Positions 3,466 through 64,000 of a stretch of 64,000 bases of DNA are shown here, one piece after another. The notes under the pieces are model-generated. The model saw nothing but the letters and a program-made list of their open reading frames with translations, was not told the origin of the DNA and ran no database searches. Numbering within the stretch: the stretch's first letter is position 1; each line of letters begins with the position of its first letter. The translations under genes were made by a program, and so were the position numbers. The stretch lies in NCBI GenBank assembly GCA_016180575.1, contig JACPAY010000001.1, positions 64,857 to 128,856 of the forward strand, in the 5' to 3' direction. This stretch comes from Candidatus Omnitrophota bacterium (lineage in GTDB: Bacteria; Omnitrophota; Gorgyraeia; Aquiviventales; Aquiviventaceae).

Positions 3466-4014
3466 TCAGGGGGCCCCTTTCGCGCGGCCGTTCAGCGCCG
3501 CGAGAACCTCGTCGGTGACATCGTAGGCGTCCTGGCCGTAGACCATGGCCTGCCCGTCCAGGATGAGCGAGAACCCGTTGGCCTTGGCGTAGTCCTGCAG
3601 CACCCGCTGGATCTCCTCCAGCAGCCCCTTGGCCACCCCGTCGCGCTCATGGCGCAGGTCCCGCGCCGTGTTGGTGCGGAAGCGCTGCAGCTCGTCCGCC
3701 CGCTCCTCGATCTCCCGGGCCTTGGACTCGCGGGCCTCCGCGCTCAGCAGCTCCAGGCTCTGGCGCATCTTCCGGAGCTCCTCCACGCGGCCCTTGAGCT
3801 CCGCCTCCTTCTGCTTGCCCTTCTTCTCCAGCGCGGCGTCGGAGGCCTGCGTCTTCGCATAGCCGTCGAACACCTTGGCCATGTTCACATAGCCGATCTT
3901 CAGCTCCTCCGCCCTCGCCGTGGGACAGGGGACAGGGGACAGGGGACACGCTGCGAGGATCATGAGGATGAGGATGACGCCGTGGGACCACCCGCGCAAG
4001 ACCGCCTGTCTCAT
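3466..4014 (-). CDS. skp: OmpH/Skp-like periplasmic chaperone
   Basis: 182 aa from ATG 4014. Hydrophobic signal peptide followed by a Lys/Glu/Arg-rich coiled coil. bamA-skp-lpx synteny supports the call. The track ORF 3466..4521 is over-extended. Confidence 0.75.
   Translation of the reverse strand: MRQAVLRGWSHGVILILMILAACPLSPVPCPTARAEELKIGYVNMAKVFDGYAKTQASDAALEKKGKQKEAELKGRVEELRKMRQSLELLSAEARESKAREIEERADELQRFRTNTARDLRHERDGVAKGLLEEIQRVLQDYAKANGFSLILDGQAMVYGQDAYDVTDEVLAALNGRAKGAP
3922..3948. repeat. tandem heptamer GGGGACA x about 4 inside the skp signal-peptide coding region
   Basis: gGGACA GGGGACA GGGGACA GGGGACA on the + strand. It encodes ..CPLSPVPCP.. on the minus strand. Confidence 0.9.
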
Positions 4015-4033
4015 GTCTCCTGTCTCCTGTCTC
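4006..4033. repeat. Family C heptamer array (CTGTCTC x4) at the bamA-skp junction
   Basis: CTGTCTC ATGTCTC CTGTCTC CTGTCTC, which is (GAGACAG)n in gene sense. It contains the bamA stop, GGAG SD-like motifs and the skp ATG. Confidence 0.9.
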
Positions 4034-6344
4034 AGAAACTCCGGCTGATGTTGAAGTGCACCTGCAGCTCGCGTTCCTCGCCGGGATCCAGGTCGCTGAC
4101 GGGCACCCCCAGATCGAGCCGCAGCGGCCCGATGGGCGTGTTCACGCGCACCCCCGCCCCCGCGCCCGCCTTGAACGACTCGCCGAACTCCTTGACGCGC
4201 CGCCAGACGTTGCCGACGTCCAGGAAGACCGATCCCCGGAGGATCGGCCGGCCGCGCTCGTCTTTCAGCAGCGTCACGACCTCCTCCAGCGTCCCCACGA
4301 GCAGCGCCTCGCCGCCGATGGGGTCGTTGGACGCCGGGTCGCGCGGTCCCACGCGCCGCTCCTCGAAGCCCCGGATGGTGCCGGAGCCGCCGCCGAAGAA
4401 CCGCTCGAAGATGGGGACCTCCGACGTGCCCGAATAGGCGTCGACGATCCCGGCGCGGAGGCGGGACTCGAACACCAGGCGGTCCCAGTGGGGGAGGTAG
4501 TGGCTCCCCCCCGCCTGCCACCGGTAGAAGTCCTTGTCGGCCCCGAAGAGCCCGCCCGCCAGATCGGCCGAGCTGAACAGGAACAGGCCGCGGGTCGGGT
4601 CAAAACGGTTGTCCCGATGGTCCCAGGAGATCCCGAGGCCCGCGACGCTGATGGTGTTGCGCCCCTGCTCGGCCTTCAGGTCAGCCGAGGCCTCGGTCAC
4701 CACGTCGGAGATCTCGGTGCGGTAGAGCTGGTAGCTGAGGCTCCCCAGCAGGCCGTCGATGAACTCCCGGCCAAGCCGCAGCCCCGCCCCGCGCTGCTCC
4801 TCCTCGAACGCGAGGCCCAGGTTGCGGCTGCGCAACCGGGTGCGGTTGTACGCGTCGATGCCGAGCGACACCGGGTGGCCGAAGATCCACGGCTCGGTGA
4901 ACGACACGTCGAAGAACCGCCGGACGGTGCCGACCTCCACCCGGAAGCGGAGGTCCTGCCCCGCGCCCGTGAATGTCGGGAAGTTCCGCCAGTCGAAGTT
5001 GCGCTGCTCGAGCTCCACGAGGCCGACGAGGCGATCCACCGAGGAGAACCCGCCGCCGAAGCTGAAGCTGCCGGTCTTGGCCTCCTTGACCTTGACGACC
5101 AGATCCTCGCGGTCGGGCGTCTCGGTCGGCTCCGTCTCCACGCTGACCTCTTCGAAGTACCCCAGGTTGTAGAGCCGGTCGATGGACTTGCGGATCGCAG
5201 CACCGTCGAACCGCTCGCCGGGATAGGCCCGGAGCTCCCGGCGCACGACGACGTCCTTGGTCCGCAGGTTGCCCCGGACCTCGACGCGGTTGATGGACAC
5301 GAGCTCATTCTCGGCGATGCGGTAGGTCAGGTTCACGCGCTTCGTCGCGTCGTCCAGCTGCGGCTCCGGGACGACCTCCGCGTGGATGTAGCCCCGGTCG
5401 CCGTAGTATTGCTTGATGCCCCGCAGGTCCTCCTGCAGCGCCTCCTGGCTGTACACCGCCCCCGGCTTGAGCGTGATGGCCTGCCGGATCTCGCGCTCCG
5501 GAAAGAGCACGGTGCCGGTCAGCGCCACCTGGCCGACCCGATGCTGCAGCCCCTCCGTGATCTTCAGATGGACATAGAGCCCGCGCCCGGCGGCGTCCCG
5601 GTAGACCTCCTGGGTGGCGGCGACGTCCTGGTAGCCGTGCTTCCGGTAGAAGGCCCGCACCCGCTCGAGGTCCTCCTCGAGCACCTGCTCGTTGTAGACC
5701 CCGGAGCGGAACCAGCGCCGGCGCTTCGTCTTGAGCAGCTTCCGGATCCGTCGGTCCGGGAAGGCCTGGTTGCCCTCCACCAGGACGCCGGCGATCCGCA
5801 TGCGGGTCCCCTCCTCGACCAGCAGATAGATGGTCGCCGTGTTGGCTACCTCATCGAGCTGGACGCGCGAGGCGATCTCGCTCTGCGAAAACCCCTTGCG
5901 CGCGTACTCCGCCTTCAGCTGATCGATCCCCTCCTTGACCCTCCGGGGGTCGTACAGCTCGCCCGGACCGACGCCGAACAGCTCAAGGAGCTTGGGCTTG
6001 CCCAGCGCCCGGTTGCCCTCCACCTCGACGGCTGACACCGTCGGCTTCTCGGTGACGACGAACACGAGGCGCAGCCCCTCGGGCGTCTGCTCGACATCGG
6101 CCCGGACGTCGGTGAAGTAGCCGAGCGCGAAGAGGCGCCGGATGTCTTCGCTGACGATCGCGTTCTGATAGGGCGAGCCCGGCTTCGTCCGGACGCGCGC
6201 CAGGACGGTTTCCTTGGCGACCGTCTTCGCGCCGCGGAGCTCCACCGCGACGACCGTTTCGCCCTCCTGGGCGAAGCTGGGGGACGCCGCGAGGCCCATG
6301 CCGCAGAGGAGCAGGGCCAGGCAGCTGCCAGCGGAGCGGCTCAT
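4032..6344 (-). CDS. bamA: outer membrane protein assembly factor BamA
   Basis: 770 aa. Signal peptide (..ASPSFAQEG), POTRA-like N-terminal repeats and a C-terminal beta-barrel ending ..HFNISRSF. Confidence 0.93.
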   Translation of the reverse strand: MSRSAGSCLALLLCGMGLAASPSFAQEGETVVAVELRGAKTVAKETVLARVRTKPGSPYQNAIVSEDIRRLFALGYFTDVRADVEQTPEGLRLVFVVTEKPTVSAVEVEGNRALGKPKLLELFGVGPGELYDPRRVKEGIDQLKAEYARKGFSQSEIASRVQLDEVANTATIYLLVEEGTRMRIAGVLVEGNQAFPDRRIRKLLKTKRRRWFRSGVYNEQVLEEDLERVRAFYRKHGYQDVAATQEVYRDAAGRGLYVHLKITEGLQHRVGQVALTGTVLFPEREIRQAITLKPGAVYSQEALQEDLRGIKQYYGDRGYIHAEVVPEPQLDDATKRVNLTYRIAENELVSINRVEVRGNLRTKDVVVRRELRAYPGERFDGAAIRKSIDRLYNLGYFEEVSVETEPTETPDREDLVVKVKEAKTGSFSFGGGFSSVDRLVGLVELEQRNFDWRNFPTFTGAGQDLRFRVEVGTVRRFFDVSFTEPWIFGHPVSLGIDAYNRTRLRSRNLGLAFEEEQRGAGLRLGREFIDGLLGSLSYQLYRTEISDVVTEASADLKAEQGRNTISVAGLGISWDHRDNRFDPTRGLFLFSSADLAGGLFGADKDFYRWQAGGSHYLPHWDRLVFESRLRAGIVDAYSGTSEVPIFERFFGGGSGTIRGFEERRVGPRDPASNDPIGGEALLVGTLEEVVTLLKDERGRPILRGSVFLDVGNVWRRVKEFGESFKAGAGAGVRVNTPIGPLRLDLGVPVSDLDPGEERELQVHFNISRSF

Positions 6345-11601: not shown

Positions 11602-13149
11602 TTACCGCCTGGTCCTCCGCGCGCGGGGCCGCGTCGCCCGCCGCGGGGCGGCCTTCGCGCGGACCGGGCGTCCCTCGACTCGCTTCGCTCGCTCGGGACG
11701 GTGCCGAGCGGCTGGCGCGCGGCGGCGGGCCCCCGCGCCAGCGCGCTTCGCGGCCCTCTTGACCTTCCGGATGGCTCGCCCCGCCGTCGGCGGGGCGGGC
11801 TTGGCCTTCGCCTGACCGTCCTTCCGGCGCGCGGGCGACGCGCGCTCCGCCTTCAGCGGCGGCTTCGCCCCTGCCGCCGGCTCGCGGTGGTCCGTCGGGC
11901 GCGCGGCCAGCGGGCGGGCCGGCACCCCGGCCACCACGCCCTTTGGCGGCACATCGTGCGCCTTGGTGACGACGCAGCCGGCCCCGGTCACCGCCCCGGC
12001 GCCGATCTTGACCGGCGCGACGAGGACCGAATCGGAGCCGATGAAGGCGCCTTTGCCGATGTGGGTCTGGTGCTTGTCCTTGCCGTCGTAGTTCGCGGTG
12101 ACGGTGCCGGCGCCGATGTTGACGTCATCCTCGATGACCGCGTCGCCCAGATAGCTGAAGTGGTTGATGCGCGTGCGGGCGCCGACCTTCGTCCGGACCA
12201 GCTCCGCGAAGTTGCCGACCCGCACCGCCTCGCCCAGCGCGACCCCGGTGCGCAGCCGGGCGAAGGGCCCGATCTCGCACCGCTTGCCGATGGACACCCC
12301 CGTCTGGATCGCCGTATAGGGGTGGATGACGGTGTCGGCCCCGATGCTCACGCCGTAGTCGATGGAGGTGGTGGCAGGATCCTCGATGGTGACGCCGTTG
12401 TGGAGGTGCATCTCGATGATCCGCTGGCGGATGACCCCGATCGCCCGGGCCAGCTCCGAGCGCGAGTTGATCCCGAGCGCCTCGGCGATCTCCTCGACGC
12501 GCGCCGCCTGGATCTTGGTCCCCTCCTGCCGGGCCAGGTGCGAGACGATGTCGGTGAGATAGAGCTCGTGCTTGGCGGCGCTCGGCTTCACCGTCGCCAG
12601 CGCGGCCAGCAGCGCCGGGGCGCTGCAGACGAGCGGCCCGACGTTGATCTCGCGGAGCGCCCGCTGGGCGGCGTTGGCCTCCGCCTCCTCCACGATGCCG
12701 CTGATGAGGCCGCTCTCGTTGCGGAGGATGCGGCCGTAGCCGGTCGGGTCGGCCAGGTGCGCGGTCAGGAGGCTGCAGGTGGCGCCCGTCTTGAAGTGCG
12801 TCTCGATGAGCCGCTGGACCGTCGTGCGGCGCAGCAGCGGGGTGTCGGCGTAGAGGACCAGGACCGCCCCGGACCCGCTCAGCAGCTTCTTCGCTGCGGC
12901 GACCGCGTCCCCCGTGCCGAGCCGCTTGCCCTGGACGACGACGCGCGCCTCGTGGGGGAGCTGGGCCTTCACGTCCTCGGCGCCGTGGCCCAGCACGACG
13001 ATGGGCTGCTTGACCCCGGACAATGCCGCCAGGTCCAGGGCGTACGCGATCATCGGCCGGCCGCAGATCCCGTGCAGCACCTTCGGCCGGTCCGACTTCA
13101 TCCGCGTGCCTTCCCCGGCCGCCAAGATGACCGCCTGCAGGTTTCTCAT
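11602..13149 (-). CDS. glmU: bifunctional GlcNAc-1-P uridyltransferase / GlcN-1-P acetyltransferase GlmU with ~60-aa extra basic C-terminal tail
   Basis: 515 aa. AVILAAGEGTRMKS N-terminus and a hexapeptide-repeat C-domain. This is followed by a Lys/Arg/Ala/Pro-rich tail (..KAKPAPPTAGRAIRKVKRAAKRAG..RRATRPRARRTRR) running up to 3 nt before prs. Confidence 0.93.
   Translation of the reverse strand: MRNLQAVILAAGEGTRMKSDRPKVLHGICGRPMIAYALDLAALSGVKQPIVVLGHGAEDVKAQLPHEARVVVQGKRLGTGDAVAAAKKLLSGSGAVLVLYADTPLLRRTTVQRLIETHFKTGATCSLLTAHLADPTGYGRILRNESGLISGIVEEAEANAAQRALREINVGPLVCSAPALLAALATVKPSAAKHELYLTDIVSHLARQEGTKIQAARVEEIAEALGINSRSELARAIGVIRQRIIEMHLHNGVTIEDPATTSIDYGVSIGADTVIHPYTAIQTGVSIGKRCEIGPFARLRTGVALGEAVRVGNFAELVRTKVGARTRINHFSYLGDAVIEDDVNIGAGTVTANYDGKDKHQTHIGKGAFIGSDSVLVAPVKIGAGAVTGAGCVVTKAHDVPPKGVVAGVPARPLAARPTDHREPAAGAKPPLKAERASPARRKDGQAKAKPAPPTAGRAIRKVKRAAKRAGAGARRRAPAARHRPERAKRVEGRPVRAKAAPRRATRPRARRTRR
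11670..11699. repeat. Family D-related unit inside the glmU tail coding region
   Basis: GTCCCTCGACTCGCTTCGCTCGCTCGGGAC shares the CCCTCGAC...CTCGGGAC ends with the msrA element. Confidence 0.5.
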
Positions 13150-13196: not shown

Positions 13197-13267
13197 CTGG
13201 GGAGCCAGGACTCGAACCTGGACGTGGAGCTTCAAAGGCTCCTGTGCTGCCGTTACACTACTCCCCA
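13197..13267 (-). tRNA. tRNA-Gln (anticodon UUG)
   Basis: Hand-folded cloverleaf: UGGGGAG/CUCCCCA acceptor stem (U1-A72, as in Gln tRNAs), GUGU/GCAC D stem, GGAGC-CUUUGAA-GCUCC anticodon arm and CCAGG-UUCGAGU-CCUGG T arm. The discriminator is G and CCA is not encoded. Ends are good to about 1-2 nt. Confidence 0.9.
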
Positions 13268-14161
13268 TCGCACAGACACCTTCGAAGCCGGCTCACCGCG
13301 CCAGGTCTGCACCACCTCGACGCGCCAGGGATGCCGGCGCAGCGACCCGGCGACGGCCTCCGCCTGGGCCGCGTCGCGGCAGAGGCCGAAGACCGCGGGC
13401 CCGCTGCCGGAGACAGAAACCCCCTCACAGCCAAGACGGCTCAGAGAAGACTGGATGGTCGCAATGACAGGGCAACGCCGGATCGCTATAGGTTGAAGAT
13501 CGTTCCGTAATCCCTTAGCGAGCTCGCCGAGCGAGCCGTTGCGTAAGGCGTGCGTCACCATGCTAATCGAGGAGGGGGGGGCTGTCAAGCTGATTTCCAG
13601 CGCCGCCTCCTGATCCCAGGCCGCGAAGATATCCTTCGTGGTCAGGCGATCCGGCGGCACCGCCAGGACATGGGCCAGCGGCCGCACGCCCGCCAGGGGC
13701 TCGCATCGCTCCCCCCGGCCCCGCCCGATCGCAAACGGGGCCTCGCCAAGAAAGAAGGCGACGTCGGACCCCACGCCCGCGCCAAGCTCGGCGAGCCTGC
13801 CGGGGGGCCATCGGAGATCCCAGAGCGCGTTGAGGCCGAGGAGCGCTGCGGCCGCGTCGGAGGAGCCGCCCCCCAGTCCGGCTGCGATGGGGATGCGTTT
13901 GGCAAGATGGATGCGGGCCCCGCGCGTCAGGCCGCTGGCCTGCTGCAGCGCCCTCGCCGCGCGCAGGACGAGGTTGTCCTCGCCGCAGGAAAGCGCCGGC
14001 TCCGTGCAGGTGAGCGCCAGCTCCCCGTGCGGCTCGAAGGCCAGCTCATCACACAGGTCGATCCGCTCGAAGAGCGTTTCGATCTCGTGGTAGCCGTCAG
14101 CTCGTCGCCCGACCACGCGGAGCGACAGGTTCAGTTTGGCAGGTGCGGACAGGCGTATCAT
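13253..14161 (-). CDS. ispE: 4-diphosphocytidyl-2-C-methyl-D-erythritol kinase
   Basis: 302 aa with PAKLNL.L.V and the GHMP kinase loop PIAAGLGGGSSDAAA. The last 15 nt overlap the 5' end of tRNA-Gln. Confidence 0.9.
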   Translation of the reverse strand: MIRLSAPAKLNLSLRVVGRRADGYHEIETLFERIDLCDELAFEPHGELALTCTEPALSCGEDNLVLRAARALQQASGLTRGARIHLAKRIPIAAGLGGGSSDAAAALLGLNALWDLRWPPGRLAELGAGVGSDVAFFLGEAPFAIGRGRGERCEPLAGVRPLAHVLAVPPDRLTTKDIFAAWDQEAALEISLTAPPSSISMVTHALRNGSLGELAKGLRNDLQPIAIRRCPVIATIQSSLSRLGCEGVSVSGSGPAVFGLCRDAAQAEAVAGSLRRHPWRVEVVQTWRGEPASKVSVRWGVV

Positions 14162-14165
14162 TTAG

Positions 14166-14211
14166 AAGTACCGGGTACTTTTCCCGCTTTGCGAAGTACC
14201 CGGTACTTTTT
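14166..14211. repeat. Family B hairpin repeat, copy B1
   Basis: AAGTACCGGGTACTTTTCCCGCTTTGCGAAGTACCCGGTACTTTTT. It fills the whole transketolase-ispE intergenic gap. Confidence 0.9.
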
Positions 14212-20479: not shown

Positions 20480-20492
20480 CCGCTACTCCTCC

Positions 20493-20531
20493 CCGGTATC
20501 AGATACCAAAGCGAGTTTGGTATCTGATACC
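20493..20531. repeat. Family A palindromic pair, copy A2
   Basis: CCGGTATCAGATACCAAA-gcgag-TTTGGTATCTGATACC. 16-bp stem and 5-nt loop, immediately upstream of the SD of the CheY-like gene. Confidence 0.9.
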
Positions 20532-20695
20532 AAAATGGGCTGCTGAAGCCTTCGCTTCGGCAGCCCACCCTTCCGGTGCGACGCACCGGACGCGCGGCTT
20601 TGCGTCCCCCGCTCACGCGGGGTTTGCCTTTCTCGGCGTCCGCGTTGTCTGGTTATAGTCTGCCTGATGCCGGGCGGGATTGGCAAGGGGCGGGG

Positions 20696-22407: not shown

Positions 22408-22964
22408 GCACCACCTTTCAAAGTACCGGGTACTTTTCCCGCTTTGGGAAGTACGCGGTACTTTTTCTCGAGGGCGGCGATCTGCTTCACGCGGCGCTCA
22501 TGCCGCCCGCCCGACTCGAAGGGGGTCGCGAGCCACACCTCCGTGATGCGCCTGGCCCGCGCCTCGCTCAGCTTCTCCGCCCCCAGCACGAGGATGTTCG
22601 CGTCGTTGTGGCTGCGGCTGCGCTCCGCATCGAAGGGATCATGGCAGACCGCCGCGCGGATGCCCGGCACCTTGTTCGCCGCGATGGCGATCCCGATCCC
22701 GGACTTGCACAGCAGGATGCCCCGGTCGAACGCCCCCTGCGCCACCGCCGCGGCGACCCGGCCGCCGATCGCCGGATAGTCGCACGGCGCCGCGGAATGG
22801 GTGCCCAGGTCCGCCACCTCCAGCCCCCTCGCCCTCAGCAGCGCCACCAGCTTCGCCTTGAGCTGGAAGCCGCCGTGGTCCGCGCCGACCGCGACCCGAA
22901 CAGGTCCGGTATCAGATACCTTCGAGTGTCTGGATATCTTCTTTTGGTATCTGATACCGGTCAT
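22404..22964 (-). CDS. rpiB: ribose-5-phosphate isomerase B with repeat-encoded N- and C-terminal extensions
   Basis: 186 aa. The core is [13 protein letters not shown]...[20 protein letters not shown]...[13 protein letters not shown]. The only in-frame start is ATG 22964 (ATGA overlap), so repeat A3 is translated as [21 protein letters not shown]. The 3' end reads through repeat B2. Confidence 0.9.
22420..22466. repeat. Family B hairpin repeat, copy B2 (inside the rpiB 3' coding end)
   Basis: AAAGTACCGGGTACTTTTCCCGCTTTGGGAAGTACGCGGTACTTTTT. It is read through as ..[20 protein letters not shown]. Confidence 0.9.
22906..22960. repeat. Family A palindromic pair, copy A3 (translated as the rpiB N-terminus)
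   Basis: CCGGTATCAGATACC (22906-22920), a 25-nt spacer, then GGTATCTGATACCGG (22946-22960). Confidence 0.9.
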
Positions 22965-23437: not shown

Positions 23438-23442
23438 CAGCT

Positions 23443-23491
23443 GAGACAGGAGACAAGAGACGGGAGACAGGTGGGGGCTGTCTCCTGTCTC
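23443..23491. repeat. Family C heptamer palindrome at the tsaC/ywlE-like junction
   Basis: GAGACAG GAGACAA GAGACGG GAGACAG gtggggg CTGTCTC CTGTCTC. The tsaC stop lies in the last unit. Confidence 0.9.
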
Positions 23492-24113: not shown

Positions 24114-24310
24114 CCCAACACCTCTCGGGGCGGGTCCTGCCGCCTCCGGCACCCCGCCGTCCGTCCTCGTCCCGCCGATGGCGGGACTGCGGCCGGCGGC
24201 AGGGGCCCCCCTCGCCGGGGGCGGCCCCCCTCTGGCTCGCTGACGCTCGCCATCTCCCCCGTCTTGCGGGGGAGTCACCTCCAGCGTCACCCGCCAGAGG
24301 GGTGTTGGGA
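24113..24310 (-). promoter_or_regulatory. structured tsaC 5' leader with SD/AUG-sequestering long-range helix
   Basis: In the RNA sense, UCCCAACACCCCUCU (24310-24296) can pair with AGAGGUGUUGGGA (24125-24113). The second strand contains the SD GAGAGG and the A of the AUG. The helix encloses hairpins CUCCCCCG-caaga-CGGGGGAG and the E2 element. Confidence 0.4.
24132..24205. repeat. Family E long imperfect hairpin, copy E2
   Basis: GGGTCCTGCCGC (24132-43) and CCGTCCTCGTCCCGCCGATGGCGGGACTGCGG (24161-92) are exact reverse complements of 60034-60045 and 59987-60018. Confidence 0.8.
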
Positions 24311-29108: not shown

Positions 29109-31429
29109 CAGCGCCGCAGCCCCCACGCGCGCGGAAGCCCGGTCCGCCAGGCCTCGCTCAGCTCGTCGACCGGCACATCGATCCATGAGTCGAGGCGCAG
29201 ATGCGCGCCGCCCACCCGGCCCAGGACCGCCATCGGCACGTTGTGGCGCGCGGCCAGGTGCTCGACCCGCTCCACGTGGTACCGCGCGCAGCTGGCGACG
29301 ATGCGGCCCGCCGACTCGCCGAAGAGCAGCGCATCGGTCCGTATTCGCTGACGGCTGCCCGCCCCGGCCCTCGTGATGGGCGGGCCGGGGAAGGCTGACG
29401 GCTGAAGGCTGACCACGGCGCCGAGGAGCCGCGCGGGCTCCATGATGCAGCATTCGGCCAGCGCGACCGCCAGCCCCCCTTCGGAGCAGTCGTGCGCCGA
29501 CTTAAGCCACCCCTGGGAGGCCAGCGCCAGCATCAGCTGCTGCAGCGCCGACTCGCCCGCCAGGTCAACCCGCGGGGGTTTGCCCGCCTTGCGCTTGTGG
29601 ATCATGGCCAGGTACTCGCTGCCGCCCAACTCCTCCCGCGTCTCGCCGAGGAGGATGACGGCGTCGCCCTCATCCTTAAAGTTCGCCGTAATCGGTCCTG
29701 GGACAGGAGACGGGGGACGTGAGACATGTCTCCTGTCTCTTGTCTCCTGTCTCGGTTCAATCAGGCCGATCATGCCGATCACCGGCGTCGGATCGATCGC
29801 GCCCCGCGGCCCCTCGTTGTAGAAACTCACGTTGCCGCCGGTCACGGGCGTCTTGAACGCCCGGCAGGCGTCACTGATCCCGCGGACGCACGCCTTGAAC
29901 TGCCACATGACCGCCGGGTCCTGCGGGCTGCCGAAGTTGAGGCAGTCGGTGACGGCGAGCGGCCGCGCCCCGACGCAGACCAGGTTGCGCGCCGCCTCGG
30001 CCACCGCCGCCTTGCCGCCCTCGTAGGGGTCGAGGAAACAGAAGCGGCCGTTGCCGTCGGTGGTCGCCGCCAGCCACGTGCCGAGCGCCCTGAGCCGCAG
30101 GACGGCGGCATCCGCCCGTCCGGGGAGGACCGCGGTGTTCGTCTGGACCATGTGGTCGTACTGCTCGAAGACGGCGGATTTATCCGCGATCGTCGGCGAA
30201 CCCAGCAGCGTCAGGAGCACGGCGCCGTAATCCTTCGGCAGCGGCAGCCGAGCCAGCAGCAGCCGCTGCGCCCGGGCGAGCCCCGCCGGGCGCCGGACCG
30301 GCCGGCGGTACACCGGCGCCTCGTCGGTGAGCGCCGAGGCCGGGATCTCCGCCGCGACGGCAGAGCCGTCCCGCACCCGCATCAGGCCGTCGCGCGTCAC
30401 CCGCCCGATCTCCACCGCGTTGAGCCCCCATTTGGCGAAGAGCCGCTTGACCCGCTCCTCGCGGCCGCGCTTCGCGATGAGCAGCATGCGCTCCTGCGAC
30501 TCGGAGAGCATCACCTCATACGGGGTCATCCCCTCCGCGCGGCGCGGCACGCGCGCGACATCGATCTCGATCCCCACGCCCCCGCGCGCGGCGGTCTCTG
30601 AGGTCGAGCAGGTCAGGCCGGCCGCGCCCATGTCCTGGATGCCGACGACGTCGCCGGTCGCCAGCGCCTCGAGCGTCGCCTCGATCAGACATTTCTCGGT
30701 GAACGGGTCGCCGATCTGGACCGCCGGCCGGTCCGCATCGCCGTCGGCCAGCTCGCGCGAGGCGAACGAGGCGCCGCCCAGGCCGTCGCGGCCCGTCGAG
30801 GAGCCGACGTACAGGACCGGGTTGCCGACCCCGCCGGCCGCCGCGCGCGCGATCCGCCGCGCCGGCACCAGGCCGATGCACATCACGTTGACGAGCGGGT
30901 TGTCCCGGTAGGCCGGGTCGAAGGCGATCTCGCCGCCCACCGTCGGGACGCCAACCGCGTTCCCGTAGTCGCTGATCCCTTTCACCACGCCCTCCAGGAG
31001 AAACCGGCTGCGGGGCTCCTCCAGCGGACCGAAGCGCAGAGAGTCCAAGAGCGCGATGGGCCTGGCCCCCATGGTGAAGATGTCGCGGATGATGCCGCCC
31101 ACCCCGGTCGCGGCCCCCTGCACCGGCTCCACCGCGGAGGGGTGGTTGTGGCTCTCGCATTTGAACACGACCGCCCAGCCCCCGCCGATGTCCACCACGC
31201 CGGCGTTCTCCTTCCCGGCCGGCACGAGGATGCGCGGGCCCTTCGTCGGGAACGTCTTGAGGTACGGCCGGGAGCTGCCGTAGCTGCAATGCTCCGAATA
31301 CATGACGCCGAAGATCCCGACCTCCGTCAGCGTCGGCTGGCGGCCCAGCGTCTTGACGATGTGCCGGTACGTCTCGTCCGTGAGGTTGTGCGACTTCGCG
31401 ACCCGCTTCAGCAGCTGCGCGTCAGGCAT
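29108..31429 (-). CDS. purL: phosphoribosylformylglycinamidine synthase subunit PurL (FGAM synthase II)
   Basis: 773 aa with SEHCSY, GGIIRDI and the duplicated PurM-like domains. It contains an in-frame insertion encoded by repeat C3. Confidence 0.95.
29700..29755. repeat. Family C heptamer palindrome inserted in frame in purL
   Basis: GGGACAG GAGACGG GGGACGT GAGACAT | GTCTCCT GTCTCTT GTCTCCT GTCTCGG. It is translated as ..[20 protein letters not shown].. Confidence 0.9.
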
Positions 31430-34910: not shown

Positions 34911-34920
34911 CGCCAGCCTC

Positions 34921-34961
34921 CCGGTATCAGATACCAATCGGAAAATGGTATCTGATACCGG
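34921..34961. repeat. Family A palindromic pair, copy A4
   Basis: CCGGTATCAGATACC-aatcggaaaat-GGTATCTGATACCGG in the purB 5' leader, abutting the SD GGGAGG. Confidence 0.9.
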
Positions 34962-37642: not shown

Positions 37643-37650
37643 CAAAAAAG

Positions 37651-37700
37651 AAAAAGGTACCGGGTACTTTTCCCGCTTTGGGAAGTACCCGGTACTTTTT
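37651..37700. terminator. Family B hairpin repeat, copy B3, acting as a bidirectional intrinsic terminator
   Basis: AAAAAGGTACCGGGTACTTTTCCCGCTTTGGGAAGTACCCGGTACTTTTT lies between the convergent desaturase (stop 37642) and the oxidase IV-like gene (stop 37702). The stem of about 18 bp is flanked by an A-run on one side and a T-run on the other. Confidence 0.75.
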
Positions 37701-39959: not shown

Positions 39960-40871
39960 TCACGGCCGCGCCGGCGTTTCGGCGGGCTGGCCGCCGAGGA
40001 CCTGGACGTAGATGGCGCGGGCCCGGTCGGCTTCCTCCGCGAGCCGCGCAAAGGGCGGGATGTCCTCGTCCCATTCGATCAGCGTGGTCACCGGCCCCCA
40101 GCGGGTGAGCGCCTCCCGGTAGAGCGCCCACACCTCGTCGATGACGGGGCGGCTGTGCGTGTCGAAGAGGTACCCGCCCATGTCGGTGTGCCCGGCGAGG
40201 TGGAACTGGCCGACCAGCTCGCCCGGGATGCCGCGGAGGTACTCGAGGGGGTCGAACTGGTGGTTGTAGGCGTTGACGTACACGTTGTTCAGGTCAAGCA
40301 GGATGCCGCAGCCGGAGCGCTCGGCGACGGCGGCGAGGAACTCCCATTCCGGCATCGTCGAGTGCCGGTAGGTCACGTAGGCGGAGACGTTCTCCAGCAG
40401 GATCCGGCGCCCGAGCCGCTCCTGCACCTCGCCCACCCGGCCGGCGACGTGCCGGACCGCTTCCTCGGTGAACGGCAGCGGCAGCAGGTCGTGGAGCTGC
40501 TCCCCCTCCACGCCGGTCCAGCAGAGATGGTCGGAGACGATGGCCGGGTCGATGCGGTCCGCGAGCGCCTTGAGGCGCTCAAGGTAGCGGGGATCGAGCG
40601 GGTCGGAGGAGCCGATCGAAAGCGAGACGCCGTGGAGCGCGACAGGATAGCGGCGGCGCACCGCTTCCAGGATGCGCAGCGGCCGGCCCCCGGAGTCCAT
40701 GAAGTTCTCCGAGATCGCCTCGAACCAATCCATGCGCGGCCAGTCGCGGGTGATGAGGTCGTAGTGCTCGCTGCGCAGCCCCACGCCGCAGCCCAGCGAC
40801 GGCCACCTGGAAAAATGGGACCGGGTGTATTTTTCTATGGTCCTCTGATTGAAAAATATACCCGGTCCCAT
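39960..40871 (-). CDS. bufB: DUF692 / MNIO family (multinuclear non-heme iron oxidative) RiPP-modifying enzyme
   Basis: 303 aa with GVGLRSEHY, FEAISENF, VALHGVSLSIGS, SDHLCW and a TIM-barrel-like pattern. The only in-frame ATG (40871) lies inside repeat B'. CTG after an AGGTGG SD is an alternative start. Confidence 0.85.
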   Translation of the reverse strand: MGPGIFFNQRTIEKYTRSHFSRWPSLGCGVGLRSEHYDLITRDWPRMDWFEAISENFMDSGGRPLRILEAVRRRYPVALHGVSLSIGSSDPLDPRYLERLKALADRIDPAIVSDHLCWTGVEGEQLHDLLPLPFTEEAVRHVAGRVGEVQERLGRRILLENVSAYVTYRHSTMPEWEFLAAVAERSGCGILLDLNNVYVNAYNHQFDPLEYLRGIPGELVGQFHLAGHTDMGGYLFDTHSRPVIDEVWALYREALTRWGPVTTLIEWDEDIPPFARLAEEADRARAIYVQVLGGQPAETPARP

Positions 40872-40905
40872 TTTTCGGTCCCGTTTTTTCCCGGTCCCGC
40901 GGTCC
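40810..40905. repeat. Family B' repeat array between bufA and bufB
   Basis: GAAAAATGGGACCGGGTGTATTTTTC (40810-40835), a 15-nt spacer, then GAAAAATATACCCGGTCCCATTTTTC (40851-40876). The inverted repeat matches at 25/26. It is followed by degenerate GGTCCC(G)TTTTT units up to 40905. Confidence 0.85.
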
Positions 40906-43485: not shown

Positions 43486-45597
43486 TCAGCGGCCAAGCGC
43501 ATCGAGGAGGCGCGCGAGCTCGGCGCGGTCGGTGACCGGGAGCTGGCAGACGTAGCGCTCACAGACATAGGCGGTCGCATGGCCCTCCAGGGGACGCTGG
43601 GTTTTGATGAAGGGGATGAGCGCTTCGACCGCGGCGGAGGTCCCGTTGGCCGGCTGCAGCGCCAGGACCGCCCGCGGGAGGAAGCGCGAGTGGACCGCGC
43701 GGAGCATCGCGCGGGTCGCGGCATCTGCCGGCGTCCCGGCGATCACGATCTCCTGCGAGGGGCCCAGCCAAAAATCTGCGGCGATGAGGAACTGCGGAAA
43801 GGCGGTGGGCGATTGATCCGCCAGGCCGGAGAAGGCCTGAAGCTGCCGCTCCGCGCGGCCCTGGAGGTCGCGGTCCATCGTCAGGATCCCAAGGCGGACG
43901 AGGTTCAGCGCGGCGACCGAGTTCCCTGAGGGGAGCGCCCCGTCGTAGAGCTCCTTCGTCTTGGCGATCAACCGCTCGTTGCGGTCTCCGCTGAAGAAGA
44001 AGCCGCCGCCCGACTCATCCCAGAAGCCGCGGACCGTCTCGGCCGTCAGGCGCCTGGCCTCCGACAGCCACCGCGCGTCGAACGTCGCCTCATAGAGGTC
44101 CGTCAGGCCCCACGCGAGGAAGGCGTAGTCGTCCAGGAACGCGGGGATCGAGGCCTCTCCGTCCCGGTAGCGGTGGAGCAGCGTGCCCTGAGCGGAGTCG
44201 AAGGGCCGGCCCTCGCGCTGCAGCCGGTCCAGGATGAACGCGGCCGCGGCCTGCGCGGCGTCGGCGTAGCGCGGCTCATCCAGGACGCGCGAGCCGTAGG
44301 CGAGGGCGCCGATCATCAGGCCATTCCAGTCGGTGAGGATCTTGTCATCGAGATGCGGCCGCCTGCGCCGGCCCCGGGCGGCGAGCAGCGCATCGCGCGC
44401 CGCCGACAGCCGCCTGCGGAGGTCCTCCGGCGGGAGTCCTTCGCGCCGGGCGAAGGCGTCGAGCGGCTCCTGGATCGACAGGATGGTCGTCCCATGCTCG
44501 AAGTTCCCCGACGGCGTCACCCCGTAGAAGCGGCTGACCAGCGCCGCCTCCTCGGAACCGAGGACCCCCTCGATCTCCTGCGGCGTCCAGACGTAGAACT
44601 CGCCCTCCTTCCCCACCTCGCCTGCATCCTCGGCGGAGCGGAAGGCGCCGTGCGGGTCGCGCAGATCGCGCAGCACATAGTCGAAGATGTCCCGGGCCGC
44701 CTCGGCGTATTGCGGCTTGCCGGTGGCCTGGTGCGCTTCCAGGTAGGTCCGGGCCAGCAGCGCCTGGTCATAAAGCATCTTCTCGAAATGCGGCACGAGC
44801 CACCGCTCATCGGTCGAATAGCGGTGGAACCCGCCGCCCAGGTGGTCGTGGAGGCCGCCGCGGGCCATCGCATCCAGCGTGGTCTCGACCATCTCCAGCG
44901 TCTTCGGGTCCCTGCCCCGGGACCAGGCCCGCAGGAGGAACGAGAGGCTATGGCTCCGGGGGAACTTCGGGGCCGGGCCGAATCCGCCGTGGGCGGGATC
45001 GTACTGCGCGGCGAACTGGCTCGCCGCGCGCTCAAGAATAGCCAGCGTCAGCGGCGCCGACTGGCCGGCGGCCGCGCTCGCTTGGATCGCCTGCGTCAGC
45101 GACCGGCTGGAGGCCAGGAGCTCCCCGCGCCGCGTCCGCCAGGCCTCGCTGATGGACCGCAGCAGGGTCTTCAATCCGGGACGGCCCCACCGGTCCTCCG
45201 GCGGGAAATAGGTGCCGCCGTAGAACGGCTGGCCCTCGTGGGTGAGGAAGACGGTCATGGGCCAGCCGCCGCTGCCCGTCATCGCCTGGACGGCCGTCAT
45301 GTAGATGCCGTCGAGGTCCGGCCGCTCTTCGCGGTCGACCTTGATGGGAACGACGGTCTCATTGAGGAGCTTGGCGATCTCGGGATCGTCGAACGACTCC
45401 TGCTCCATGACGTGGCACCAGTAGCAGGTGGAGTAGCCGACGGAGAGCATCACCGGCTTGTCCTCCCGCTTCGCCTTGGCGAAGGCCTCCTCGCCCCAGG
45501 GGTGCCAGTCCACCGGGTTATACGCGTGCTGGAGGAGGTAGGGGCTCTTCTCGTGGATGAGGCGGTTCGGGCTGCGGCCCTTTGCGTCAACCGACAT
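43486..45597 (-). CDS. thioredoxin-domain protein (YyaL/DUF255, SSP411-like)
   Basis: 703 aa with [18 protein letters not shown]...[16 protein letters not shown], followed by an (alpha/alpha)6-like C-terminal domain. Confidence 0.88.
44185..44205. repeat. Family D single unit inside the yyaL-like gene
   Basis: GCCCTGAGCGGAGTCGAAGGG matches 16 of 20 bases of the msrA unit CCCCGAGCGAAGTCGAGGGG. It is translated as ..RPFDSAQG.. Confidence 0.6.
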
Positions 45598-51420: not shown

Positions 51421-51426
51421 GAAGTC

Positions 51427-51491
51427 CCGGTATCAGATACCAACCCCCGATTGGTATCAGATACCGACTTCTACTTGGTATCTGATACCGG
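51427..51491. repeat. Family A, three-unit copy A5
   Basis: Units at 51427-51441 (centre A), 51453-51465 (centre A) and 51477-51491 (centre T), between the PNP gene and mtnA. Confidence 0.9.
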
Positions 51492-52301
51492 AAGCTTGGC
51501 GATTACGCCTTGCAGGAGCGCGGTGAGCTTGGGTTCGGTGGCGGCGGCGACCCGAAGCAGCTCTTCCACGGACGCCGGCTTGAGCTCTTCAGGGATGCAG
51601 GCGTCGGAGACGACCGTCACCGCCAGCACCCGCAGCCCGCCGTGGCGGGCGGCGAGCACCTCCGGCACCATGGACATCCCGATGACGTCGGCGCCGATCT
51701 GCCGGAGGAACCGGTACTCCGCCTTCGTCTCCAGGTTCGGGCCGGCCACCGCGACGTAGACGCCGGGGCGCAGCGGAATCCCCTCCGCCTTGGCCACCTC
51801 CATCGCGAGCCGCCGCAGGGCGGGGTCGTAGGGCTCCGACATATCCGGGAAGCGCGGGCCGAGCGTCTCGTCGTTGGGGCCGATCAGGGGGTTGGCGCCC
51901 ATGAGGTTGATGTGGTCCTCGACCAGGACGAGTGAGCCGGGCGGCATCCGGCGGTTCATGCTCCCGACGATGCTGGTGAGGATGAGCGTCTTCGCCCCCA
52001 GGGCGTGCACCAGGCGGACCGGATAGGTCACCTGGGCCATCGTGTAGCCTTCGTAGAAGTGGAAGCGCCCGGCAAGGACCGCCAGCCGCTGGGCTCCGAG
52101 CGTGCCCAGCACCAGTTTGCCTTCGTGGCCCGGCGCGGTCGCCTGCGGCAGGTGCGGCAGCGCGGCGTAGTCGAGCTCCGCTTCCACGCGGAGCGCTTTC
52201 GTCAGGCCGCCCAGGCCGGAACCCACGATGAGGCCGATGTCGGGGCGGAAGGCGCTGCGCCCGCGGATCGCCTGGAGCGTTTCATCCAGCTGCTGCCGCA
52301 T
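51471..52301 (-). CDS. purine/5'-deoxy-nucleoside phosphorylase (PunA-type PNP family)
   Basis: 276 aa with GLIVGSGLG, GRFHFYEGY, GPNLET.AE and GMSMVPEV. The last codons (..LPVSDTK) and the stop lie inside repeat A5. Confidence 0.88.
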   Translation of the reverse strand: MRQQLDETLQAIRGRSAFRPDIGLIVGSGLGGLTKALRVEAELDYAALPHLPQATAPGHEGKLVLGTLGAQRLAVLAGRFHFYEGYTMAQVTYPVRLVHALGAKTLILTSIVGSMNRRMPPGSLVLVEDHINLMGANPLIGPNDETLGPRFPDMSEPYDPALRRLAMEVAKAEGIPLRPGVYVAVAGPNLETKAEYRFLRQIGADVIGMSMVPEVLAARHGGLRVLAVTVVSDACIPEELKPASVEELLRVAAATEPKLTALLQGVIAKLPVSDTK

Positions 52302-59949: not shown

Positions 59950-60054
59950 GCATGTGCCGGGTGACGCGGAGCGAATCCCACCCCGCCCGCAGTCCCGCCA
60001 TCGGCGGGACGAGGACGGGCGTGGGATCGCGTAGCGGCAGGACCCGGCACATGC
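59950..60054. repeat. Family E long imperfect hairpin, copy E1
   Basis: 13-bp closing stem GCATGTGCCGGGT/ACCCGGCACATGC and an apical hairpin GTCCCGCC-atc-GGCGGGAC. It shares 32-nt and 12-nt identical blocks with E2, in inverted orientation. Confidence 0.8.
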
Positions 60055-62405: not shown

Positions 62406-62993
62406 TCAGTCGTGCGGCGGCTCGCCCCAGGTCCGCTGCAGGTAGCCTTCCCGGCCCGAGCCGGCGCGGTAGAGCTTGTAGCGCAGCGGGTTTTTCTTAT
62501 GGTAGTCCTGGTGGTAGTCCTCGGCTGGGTAGAAGGGGCCGGCGGGCTTGACCTCGGTCACGATCGGCTGGTCGAACTTGCCCGAACCACTCAACCGCGC
62601 CTTCGACGCCTCGGCCAGCCGCCGCTGCTCCTCCGTATGGTAGAAGATGGCGGTCCGGTACTGCGAGCCCTTATCCGCGAACTGCCCGTCCGCCTGCGTC
62701 GGGTCGATGTTGCGCCAGAAGGTCTCGAGCAGCTCCTCGTAGCTGACCCGAGACGGGTCGTACGTGATCCGGACCGCCTCCACGTGGCCGGTGGCTCCGG
62801 ACGATACCTCCTCATAGGTCGGCCGGCCGGCGCCGCCGTCCCTCGACGAGGCTCGGGACGGCGCCCCGAGCGAAGTCGAGGGGCCGCCGGTGTAGCCCGC
62901 CGCGACCTCCGCCACGCCGTCCAATTTCTCGAAGGGCGGCTCCATGCACCAGAAGCAGCCGCCCGCAAACGTCGCCTGTTGAAGCTCCGGCAT
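62406..62993 (-). CDS. msrA: peptide-methionine (S)-S-oxide reductase MsrA with 20-aa in-frame insertion
   Basis: 195 aa from ATG 62993 with GGCFWCMEPPF, GYTGG and PTYEEV.SG.TGH.EAV...YDP. Extra residues PSTSLGAPSRASSRDGGAGR are inserted between GYTGG and PTYEEV. Confidence 0.9.
   Translation of the reverse strand: MPELQQATFAGGCFWCMEPPFEKLDGVAEVAAGYTGGPSTSLGAPSRASSRDGGAGRPTYEEVSSGATGHVEAVRITYDPSRVSYEELLETFWRNIDPTQADGQFADKGSQYRTAIFYHTEEQRRLAEASKARLSGSGKFDQPIVTEVKPAGPFYPAEDYHQDYHKKNPLRYKLYRAGSGREGYLQRTWGEPPHD
62823..62882. repeat. Family D palindromic element inserted in frame in msrA
   Basis: CCGTCCCTCGACGAGGCTCGGGACGG..CCCCGAGCGAAGTCGAGGGG, with nested inverted repeats CCCTCGAC/GTCGAGGG and CTCGGG/CCCGAG. 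Confidence 0.8.
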
Positions 62994-63060: not shown

Positions 63061-63352
63061 AGAGCTCCTAACGAAATACCCCGCGGCCGCGACGGGCCGA
63101 GGCGCGAGGCCCGCAAGGCGCGAGGAGCGTAGCGTACCAGCCCTGGCGGTACGCGAGCGACGAGCAACGCCGCGGGCCGACGCGGATCGGCCCGTCCCCT
63201 GCGTCTGACGACAGGGTTGCGGCGGCAGGGCCCGTAGCCAGCGTTGCTCCTCCTCGACGTATCGCTTCCTGCTGATACGCCTTCGTCGTCGCGCCTTGGC
63301 CACGGGCCCTGGCGCACGCAACGCGGCTCGCGCGGTATTTCGTTAGGAGCTC
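63061..63352. mobile_element. MITE-like non-autonomous element (292 bp, 19-bp perfect terminal inverted repeats, TAA flanks)
   Basis: GAGCTCCTAACGAAATACC at 63061-63079 and its exact reverse complement at 63334-63352. The match is 24/25 when extended. TAA lies on both flanks (63058-60 and 63353-55). The interior is G+C-rich, partly self-complementary and has no credible ORF. Confidence 0.55.
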
Positions 63353-64000
63353 TAAGACGGGGGCGCATCAGGGGCTTCGCGCGATGCCAGCGCCGGCAAG
63401 ACGAACAACGCCGCCACGGGAACCAGGAGCGTGCCGAGCACGATCGAGAGCCCGAACCGCTGGGTCGGCGGAAAGGCCGACAACCCGAAGACGCCGAAGC
63501 CGGCGCACACGACGACCGTCGCCGTGGTGATCGGCCTCCACATCCGGTTCCGCGCTTCGACCCAGGCCTCCCACCTGATCGGCCCAGGGCCGGAGACCCG
63601 CCGCCCGATGTTCATCAAATGCAGGAGCGAATCAATCCCCATTCCCACCGCCAGATTCGCCGCGGGAGCCGAGATGACATCAAAGGGCATCCGCAGGTAG
63701 CCGATGAGCCCGAGCATCCACAGCGGAATGAGCGCCACGCTGCCCACGACGGCCGCGGCGATCCTCCACGAGCGCGTCCAGCCCCACACGAGCCCGAAAA
63801 ACGCGACCCCCAGGCTCAGGAGTCCCCACAGCAGGCTGGAGACCACCAGCCGGGAGAGCTTGCCCTGCAGCACGTAGACCCCGCCCACCAGGTGCGGCGC
63901 AAACCCCGCCGTCTGCACGACGTCCTTCAGGCGCGCCACCGTGGCGAGGCGCGACCCCACCCGGCCGGCCTCCCGCATGAGGAGCAGGAACAGCCCCTGC
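63352..64000 (-). CDS. RND/MMPL-superfamily transporter, C-terminal fragment (5' part beyond window edge)
   Basis: Open frame to the window end. Multi-TM C-terminal bundle (..NLAVGMGIDSLLHLMN.., ..VVCAGFGVFGLSAFPPTQRFGLSIVLGTLL..). The stop TAG abuts the MITE-like element. Confidence 0.65.
   Translation of the reverse strand, partial: QGLFLLLMREAGRVGSRLATVARLKDVVQTAGFAPHLVGGVYVLQGKLSRLVVSSLLWGLLSLGVAFFGLVWGWTRSWRIAAAVVGSVALIPLWMLGLIGYLRMPFDVISAPAANLAVGMGIDSLLHLMNIGRRVSGPGPIRWEAWVEARNRMWRPITTATVVVCAGFGVFGLSAFPPTQRFGLSIVLGTLLVPVAALFVLPALASREAPDAPPS

Follow-up and report, generated by a model that had tools for sequence, protein, structure and literature searches.

The window, by which we mean the whole 64,000-nucleotide stretch of Candidatus Omnitrophota DNA analysed here, has a G+C content of 69% and carries genes for MsrA, for a YyaL-like thioredoxin-domain protein and for GlmU, each of which holds a short palindromic repeat at the coordinates given in Table 1. 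The MsrA protein matches MsrA sequences of the PDB with an E-value of 3e-37 and is 100% identical to P0001, an annotated MsrA from a Candidatus Omnitrophica MAG; the YyaL-like protein is likewise 100% identical to one from a 'Candidatus Omnitrophica bacterium' MAG. In MsrA, 20 residues (PSTSLGAPSRASSRDGGAGR) separate GYTGG from PTYEEV. The same gap measures 4 residues in E. coli, in all PDB MsrAs and in 19 of 19 close homologues, the closest of which are 83-87% identical over aligned positions, leaving 16 extra residues here. The surplus of 20 over 4 reported in the initial annotation was thus borne out at the protein level, and the DNA agrees with it: in the syntenic orthologues L003, L004 and L005, whose aligned DNA is 87% identical to the window gene, a single clean gap of 48 nt stands opposite the insertion. 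All three carry the same downstream 90-residue ORF as the window, and two of the three also carry the diphthamide-synthase-like gene. The orthologue alignment that the initial annotation had proposed therefore upholds the insertion and refutes an ancestral origin of the residues.

Two Logan assemblies from different runs (L001, L002) contain the filled msrA with 588 of 588 bases identical, and this agreement between independent assemblies shows that the insert is no assembly artefact. A covariance model scan of 80 further msrA loci found no unit of the repeat. The dimer contains no stop codon in the msrA frame and the net gain is a multiple of three, so msrA stays open. Taken together, these observations establish that the msrA insertion is real, lineage-specific and in frame. 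A closer empty allele was sought in JGI metagenomes, where the best relative was 64% identical and did not help to fix the insertion boundaries; a long match in L208 proved to be an extended alignment with no insertion. Directly upstream of msrA, at 63061-63353, lies a separate element of 293 bp, bounded by terminal inverted repeats of 25 nt (96% complementary), which is also present in Logan contig L002. Compared with the L005 orthologue, MsrA seems to have lost the start of its signal-peptide coding region to this element, the remnant ...AAAWLIMVG... being what is left. With the dimer, msrA thus carries two independent insertions.

Table 1. Coordinates of the msrA gene, of the repeat units and of the direct repeats flanking the msrA element, in positions of the window. 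CM R1 denotes the covariance model described in the text.
Feature	Position	Strand	Evidence and remarks
msrA CDS	62406..62993	-	ORF list; 195 aa, start MPELQQ; insertion host
Hairpin unit 1, msrA dimer	62835..62862	+	GCCGTCCC-TCGACGAGGCTC-GGGACGGC; CM R1 40.1 bits, E 8.4e-9
Hairpin unit 2, msrA dimer, inverted	62860..62887	-	CM R1 35.9 bits, E 1.3e-7
Direct repeat GCCGCCG, copy 1 (gene strand CGGCGGC), flanking msrA element	62832..62838	+
Direct repeat GCCGCCG, copy 2, flanking msrA element	62883..62889	+	copies 51 nt apart
Single unit, yyaL-like thioredoxin-domain gene	44182..44209	-	CM R1 33.0 bits, E 8.4e-7; orthologue protein and DNA alignments
Expanded-loop unit, basic C-terminal glmU tail (gene on -)	11667..11702	+	CM R1 22.4 bits, E 7.7e-4

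To place the extra residues in the protein we modelled MsrA with AlphaFold from a 20-sequence alignment (mean pLDDT 89, pTM 0.85). The insert, residues ~38-57, is modelled as coil between a strand at 27-35 and a helix at 60-64, with a mean pLDDT of 48 for residues 41-50 and 68 for residues 51-60. The fold of MsrA is predicted to be intact and the 16-residue insert to form a disordered loop, presumably projecting from the surface. In an alignment with the E. coli enzyme, the insert has the Tyr of GYTGG on one side and the Glu of PTYEEV on the other; we take these two residues to be the counterparts of the substrate-binding Tyr82 and Glu94 of E. coli MsrA.

On the - strand the msrA insert reads CCCTCGAC-TTC-GCTCGGG-GCGCCGT-CCCGAGC-CTC-GTCGAGGG. 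Its fold is more stable than that of dinucleotide shuffles (z = -2.9 as DNA and -3.2 as RNA), and only 1-2 of 200 shuffles fold better. The nested palindrome described in the initial annotation is therefore genuine, although the insert is better drawn as two adjacent hairpin units with conserved loops. In unit 1 a perfect 9-bp stem is formed by 62834-62842 and 62855-62863, and a central CGGCG segment is common to units 1 and 2. The stem of unit 1, GCCGTCCC/GGGACGGC, recurs identically in a copy that apparently lies between genes in L028, a locus from MAG nzgw327 (GCA_023247155), which is also the MAG holding the closest YyaL orthologue.

The initial annotation had relied on the similarity of one 20-nt arm of the palindrome to the site in the thioredoxin-domain gene. 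This similarity is not significant alone: in a within-window local alignment of the 61-nt element, the best score was 33 and the median under a third-order Markov null was ~33. The alignment of YyaL orthologues drew attention to P0175, whose DNA holds three units of the form CCY-TCGAC-N2-3-GCTC-RGG, including a head-to-head dimer that by eye closely resembles the msrA insert over ~45 nt. We wrote the pattern TCGACNNNGCTCRGGN{4,10}CCYGAGCN{2,3}GTCGA to match the msrA and P0175 dimers and scanned GTDB representative genomes with it. At least 120 stretches matched, as compared with ~0.2 expected by chance (an estimate from ~23 specified bases). The pattern gave no match in 100 shuffles of the window.

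An externally trained covariance model decided the matter. The model, R1, was built from 86 units, all of them from other genomes and none from the window, and was run with filters off. It returned four units in the window, with E-values from 8e-9 to 8e-4, the next match having E = 0.26. Two of these units lie in msrA, one in the yyaL-like gene and one in the glmU tail, which are the same three loci that had been picked out by the first reading of the sequence. R1 also detects units in related Omnitrophota loci. As a specificity control we searched unrelated neighbourhoods of msrA in other bacteria, 221 kb in total, where no unit was found at E<=0.01. With Rfam 15, nothing relevant matched in the window under gathering thresholds, nor at E<=1 in 8 element-bearing loci. 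The proposal of a repeat family able to colonise ORFs in frame is supported by the significance of all three named sites under R1. We conclude that the msrA insert is, very probably, an inserted copy of a dispersed family of small, non-autonomous, REP/REPIN-like palindromic repeats.

The basic unit of this family spans ~24-28 nt. Its stem of 6-7 bp is variable yet complementary (xyz-CCY ... RGG-z'y'x') and its loop of 11-12 nt, TCGAC-N2-3-GCTC, is conserved. The usual mobile form is a head-to-head dimer of ~45-51 nt. When 126 dimers were lined up, conservation was confined to TCGAC-NNN-GCTC, its complement GAGC-NN(N)-GTCGA and the neighbouring CCY and RGG; beyond these parts, 3-4 bases differ among copies but stay complementary within each unit. 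Over 86 distinct units, 93% of the cells of the 7-bp stem are paired, as against 73% in column shuffles (none of 500 reached the observed value) and 26-49% with the partners slid, and changes on both sides are seen in 5 of the 7 stem pairs; in this test three of the seven pairs are partly fixed by the search pattern and the four outer pairs are free. The oriented consensus dimer is TCGyCCY-TCGACnnnGCTC-RGGrCGA-CCCT-GAGCyyGTCGA-AGGGTCG, ~48 nt in length, and a position profile of 70 oriented dimers showed nothing conserved beyond it.

This arrangement has two consequences for base pairing. Given that the central segment is both the 3' arm of hairpin 1 and the 5' arm of hairpin 2, it can pair with either flank. 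Over the whole family the complementarity between flank and centre is 85-87%, compared with 42-44% when centres are shuffled. The two loops of a dimer are also mutually complementary, so the same DNA can be read as one long nested palindrome. By inspection, the consensus holds a stop codon, TGA, in only one frame of one strand and only if the unit reads CCCTGAGC. In the msrA copy the TGA-determining position is G in both units, and there is no stop in any frame.

The unit in the yyaL-like gene adds 24 nt, which encode PFDSAQGT between GR and LLHRY. The initial annotation had noted here a recurrence of the msrA arm, with 16 of 20 bases matching and RPFDSAQG as an apparent 8-residue insertion. 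The recurrence and the size of the insertion hold, the latter in both protein and DNA alignments of YyaL orthologues, with the match corrected to 17 of 20 bases at 44186-44205 and the inserted peptide to PFDSAQGT. This peptide is found in the 2-3 closest YyaL orthologues and is absent from most others, and at precisely its position P0175, a distant orthologue of 63% identity, is longer by 35 residues. From the DNA of five alleles we assembled a series for the site. P0124 is empty (GGGCGG/CTC, gain 0), the window and P0122 have one unit (+24 nt), P0132 has two units, the second of them long-looped (+54 nt), and P0175 has the P0132 arrangement with a nested dimer added (+105 nt). Since the 3' end of the window allele (CACG) is that of the P0132 insert, the single unit may be what a deletion left of a dimer. 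The yyaL copy, a lineage-specific insertion like that in msrA, is an older relic of the msrA repeat family at a multi-allele site. Filled and empty alleles are interleaved among orthologues of 63-81% identity; either the repeat has inserted here more than once, or inserts have been lost precisely. The orthologues P0133 and P0135 have another insertion, of ~20 to 40 Pro/Ala/Ser-rich residues (AASPAAGGT...), just upstream of the repeat-bearing loop. To judge from the sequences, this loop of YyaL seems to tolerate insertions of several kinds.

In the glmU tail, the related expanded unit placed at 11670-11699 by the initial annotation was recovered by R1 within slightly wider limits (Table 1), and this copy is a degenerate unit of the msrA repeat family. 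Its loop is enlarged by ~10 nt, and it is missing from the two nearest orthologues, L130 and L131, where the low-complexity tail aligns ambiguously with a net difference of +9 nt. The fold of the glmU site is no more stable than that of shuffles (z = +0.8), the hairpin signal having been lost because of the loop expansion. GlmU proteins of Omnitrophica commonly have a Lys/Arg-rich C-terminal tail of 50-70 residues, usually ending in RR, and its conservation across the group indicates that the tail is probably translated. Other short GC palindromes, such as GCTGGCGCG...CGCGCCAGC, were seen by eye at the 3' end of glmU (11605-11810).

The window holds further palindromic and dispersed sequences. 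AT-richer palindromes based on GGTATCAGATACC occur at 1255-1318, 20491-20532, 22906-22933, 34919-34960 and 51425-51503, often as inverted pairs and apparently between ORFs. A second palindromic family, AAAGTACCCGGTACTTTT, is found at 14161-14211, 22416-22466, 37650-37700 and 40810-40876 with copies 88-92% identical, and a third repeat family, with TGTCTCC/GAGACAG motifs in both orientations, at 4002-4035, 23441-23474 and 29702-29753. One 39-nt sequence with the hairpin GTCCCGCC-GAT-GGCGGGAC is present at 24158-24196 and, inverted and 95% complementary, 36 kb away at 59983-60021. The Rfam scan of the window also identified a c-di-GMP-I riboswitch (20556-20638, - strand, 58 bits) and a tRNA gene (13197-13267, - strand).

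We then considered where else the repeat occurs. By a hand count of record titles, using the labels that the records give, the stretches among the at least 120 matches listed comprise 74 from Acidobacteriota (mostly Vicinamibacterales), 11 from Leucothrix/Thiotrichaceae (Gammaproteobacteria), 9 from Omnitrophota, L028 being one, 6 from MAGs labelled Bifidobacterium or Bifidobacteriaceae, 4 from Opitutia/Verrucomicrobiae, 3 from Aquificaceae, 3 from Kerfeldbacteria/Parcubacteria (candidate phyla radiation), 2 each from Nitrospirota, Acidimicrobiia and Planctomycetes, and 1 each from Chloroflexi, a cyanobacterium, Spirochaetaceae and Porphyromonadaceae. Several genomes have 4-10 matches each among the sampled loci. 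The source genome is not among the at least 120 matches listed; its 64-kb window has 3 sites. Viral contigs gave only 4 matches, which does not point to a phage vector. An Omnitrophota contig, L102, has an array of at least 8 units within 1.6 kb (1088-2694), including a 51-nt dimer nested in another unit.

Gene calls for 97 dimers in high-GC loci, made with a GC3-based heuristic and hence approximate, placed 49 between genes, 22 inside a likely gene, 5 at gene ends and 21 at <=180 nt from the 5' limit of an ORF, where the assignment is ambiguous. The repeat family suggested by the initial annotation does exist, but it is not specific to the source genome: it spans many phyla, and about half of its copies are intergenic. 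Intergenic examples include the yebC-ruvC and ruvA-ruvB junctions of L098. Among the coding examples, as judged from Pfam matches, the element lies in frame inside the Phage_integrase domain (tyrosine recombinase) of a XerC-like protein in L025, splits an OHCU_decarbox domain in frame into two matched stretches in L099, and sits between UvrD_C and PD-(D/E)XK domains in L016. Its translations vary with frame and orientation (STSLG.., FD.AQG.., LD.ARD.., ..PELVEG), which argues that the element itself is without coding constraint.

The borders of the insertions offer clues to how the repeat might move. The direct repeats that flank the msrA element (Table 1) are complementary to its centre, CGGCG at 62859-62863 (CGCCG on the gene strand), and CGGCGG pre-exists in the empty msrA sites of the orthologues, where it is present twice. 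The 51-nt spacing of these repeats differs from the net gain of 48 nt, and one extra 3-nt change must be assumed. P0175 is longer than P0132 by exactly 51 nt. The empty allele has a single CGAGCG; the filled one has two, and these flank a 45-nt dimer with the centre CGCTCG, their reverse complement. In L102 a 51-nt dimer lies inside another unit right after GTCGA, ends in GTCGA and has the centre TCGAC. Direct repeats of 5-7 nt, 51 nt apart, are thus seen in 3 cases; they were already at the empty site in 2 and are complementary to the centre in 3 of 3. As judged from these alignments, the flank is target-derived where an empty site exists for comparison (msrA and P0175), and the element centre matches the flank.

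These data allow a mechanism to be proposed. The dimer entered msrA between the GYTGG and PTYEEV codons. The element probably inserts beside a target of 5-7 nt that has the sequence of its terminal segment and is complementary to its centre. Bases inside the element would then pair with its end as well as with the target, following the logic of single-strand hairpin transposition. Precise excision, as in IS200/IS605, would also explain the patchy yyaL alleles. By analogy with those systems, a guide-like targeting mechanism for the repeat is conceivable, and we put it forward tentatively, as somewhat less than an even chance. A counterpoint is that copying of whole units with their flanks, combined with selection for hairpins, could mimic the complementarity of flank and centre. 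A crude regular-expression scan of ~1 Mb of loci, a weak test confined to those loci, found no HUH...Y-x-NP or RAYT-like motif. The two element-flanked pairs that we checked enclose ordinary genes (a sugar-kinase-like gene; ruvC/ruvA) and no transposase.

Alternative explanations were weighed against an inserted copy of a mobile repeat. The extra MsrA residues could in principle be ancestral, form an adaptive loop or reflect faulty assembly. The intact ORF is all that speaks for this; against it stand the 4 residues in 19 of 19 close homologues and all PDB MsrAs, the absence of the 48 nt from three syntenic orthologues, the 80 further msrA loci without a unit and the agreement of two independent assemblies, and we count it as refuted, with practically no probability left. 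Scarcely more probable, and likewise counted as refuted, is a one-off local event (template switching, slippage or repair filler) by which msrA acquired a chance palindrome unrelated to the other two sites. The within-window similarity to those sites, which did not rise above the local-alignment null, would fit such an event, but both msrA units have E-values of 1e-7 to 1e-8 under a model built from other genomes, a near-identical dimer is present in the yyaL gene of another genome, and at least 120 pattern matches occur elsewhere.

Two further explanations accept a family of repeats and differ on what it is. If a conventional DDE transposase, making a 6-bp target duplication, had moved the repeat as a miniature inverted-repeat element, its hairpins and the complementarity of centre and flank would be secondary. 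The 5-7 nt direct repeats that flank it in 3 cases agree with this, as does the single copy at the empty site in 2 of them. Against it, a random duplication would not yield a flank complementary to the centre in 3 of 3 cases and at 85-87% family-wide. Terminal inverted repeats distinct from the hairpins are lacking, and no transposase was seen in the motif scan of ~1 Mb of loci. We judge this explanation improbable. Marginally less probable again is that the repeat serves the cell as a structured RNA or DNA module (a terminator, an mRNA stabiliser or a protein-binding site), whose loop reflects a conserved partner and whose coding copies are tolerated. In its favour, the 12-nt loop and CCY/RGG are kept in genomes labelled as at least 10 phyla while the stems covary, and in high-GC loci about half of the copies are intergenic, as at the L098 junctions. 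Such cross-phylum conservation of a loop is unusual for REPs, and it is a counterpoint to a REP identity that could point to a cellular function. Set against this are the lack of an Rfam match, the intragenic copies in both orientations and several reading frames, and the nested self-insertions, a typical trait of mobile DNA. The repeat could have a cellular role and be mobile as well.

We accordingly retain the reading of the msrA insert as a copy of a dispersed REP/REPIN-like repeat. A much bolder extension, which we consider rather doubtful, is that the repeat represents an undescribed, cross-phylum class of miniature single-strand transposon, in which the central 5-7 nt would guide target choice, the mover would be an enzyme not yet linked to the repeat, and stop-free units would, time and again, reshape the surface loops of housekeeping proteins across many uncultivated lineages. 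If the centre does guide target choice, the repeat would amount to a natural, minimal, programmable single-strand insertion system. In practical terms, its units generate spurious peptide motifs (STSLG..., PFDSAQG..., PELVEG...), inflate the apparent novelty of proteins and put loops near active sites, and annotation pipelines and structure predictors should recognise them.

In-frame palindromic insertion is textbook knowledge for Rickettsia and is known for some REPs; it is now seen for a different and very widespread repeat. No name for this repeat was found in the literature searched, which is no proof that it is undescribed. The peptides FDKLRAN, PELVEGR and SLSKHE are presumably translations of this kind of repeat, and a search of the literature for those translated motifs gave nothing relevant; a search on REPs in Acidobacteria and Omnitrophica gave nothing specific to the repeat. 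The Rickettsia palindromic elements, as Ogata and colleagues reportedly described in 2000, insert in frame and give the protein extra peptide segments at its surface without destroying it. RPE-1 is ~100-150 bp long and restricted to Rickettsia. In-frame insertion into protein-coding genes, a behaviour of RPEs to which PMC3733652 also refers, is all that the present repeat has in common with them. There is no relation in sequence, the unit of 24-28 nt and the dimer of ~50 nt differ in length, and the hosts are free-living high-GC bacteria, here from Omnitrophica, so that the repeat does not belong to the RPE family.

Miniature inverted-repeat elements offer a second comparison. The QMITEs of Coxiella and the Correia elements of Neisseria are larger than this repeat. 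They are likewise small non-autonomous repeats that can extend or interrupt ORFs (PMC5896051, PMC10969869). MITEs have terminal inverted repeats and fixed target duplications, whereas the present element consists of two hairpins and lacks separate terminal repeats. Flanking direct repeats of 5-7 nt are present, complementary to the centre, and no parent insertion sequence was seen.

The REP, BIME and REPIN repeats are closer. REPs and REPINs are mobilised by RAYT tyrosine transposases. Like the present repeat they are short, GC-rich, imperfect palindromes, mostly intergenic in the case of REPs, and form head-to-head doublets that fold into a larger hairpin. The inverted doublets with mutually complementary loops seen here form the longer hairpin of a REPIN, and 49 of the 97 dimers classified by our heuristic are intergenic, in keeping with the predominantly extragenic position of REPs. 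Some REPs sit in frame inside genes, where dimers encode 20-30 residues, and in-frame insertions of GTAG/CGTC REPs are described for Opitutus, Thauera and others (PMC3733652; on REPs and REPINs see also PMC3116915). The REPs described to date have loops of 2-5 nt and an unpaired GTAG or CGTC tag (PMC3733652). The present repeat differs in that its loop is long (11-12 nt) and conserved while its stem is variable, and in that no conserved tag lies outside the stem: in 70 oriented dimers no unpaired GTAG or CGTC end tag was found, CGTC appearing only within some stems. Because some stems begin with CGTC we considered membership of the CGTC-tagged REPs and rejected it, that family having stems of 8-9 bp, loops of 4-5 nt and an unpaired tag. 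Further differences are that the centre is complementary to both flanks, that one core sequence is shared across genomes labelled as many phyla and is not confined to a single lineage, and that no RAYT was found by motif in the ~1 Mb of loci scanned, a weak test.

The proposed movement most resembles that of IS200/IS605 elements. These elements (IS608, ISDra2) transpose by 'peel and paste', with insertion next to a specific short sequence and precise excision. Barabas and colleagues in 2008 and Guynet and colleagues in 2009 are said to have shown that internal guide bases at their subterminal hairpins pair with the target and cleavage sites, and internal guide-base pairing has also been proposed for REP-RAYT. 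The present repeat differs in that a single central segment would pair with both flanks, and no TnpA or other enzyme is linked to it. Its centre-to-flank complementarity and the mixture of empty and filled yyaL alleles, both read from DNA sequence, fit the IS200/IS605 scheme.
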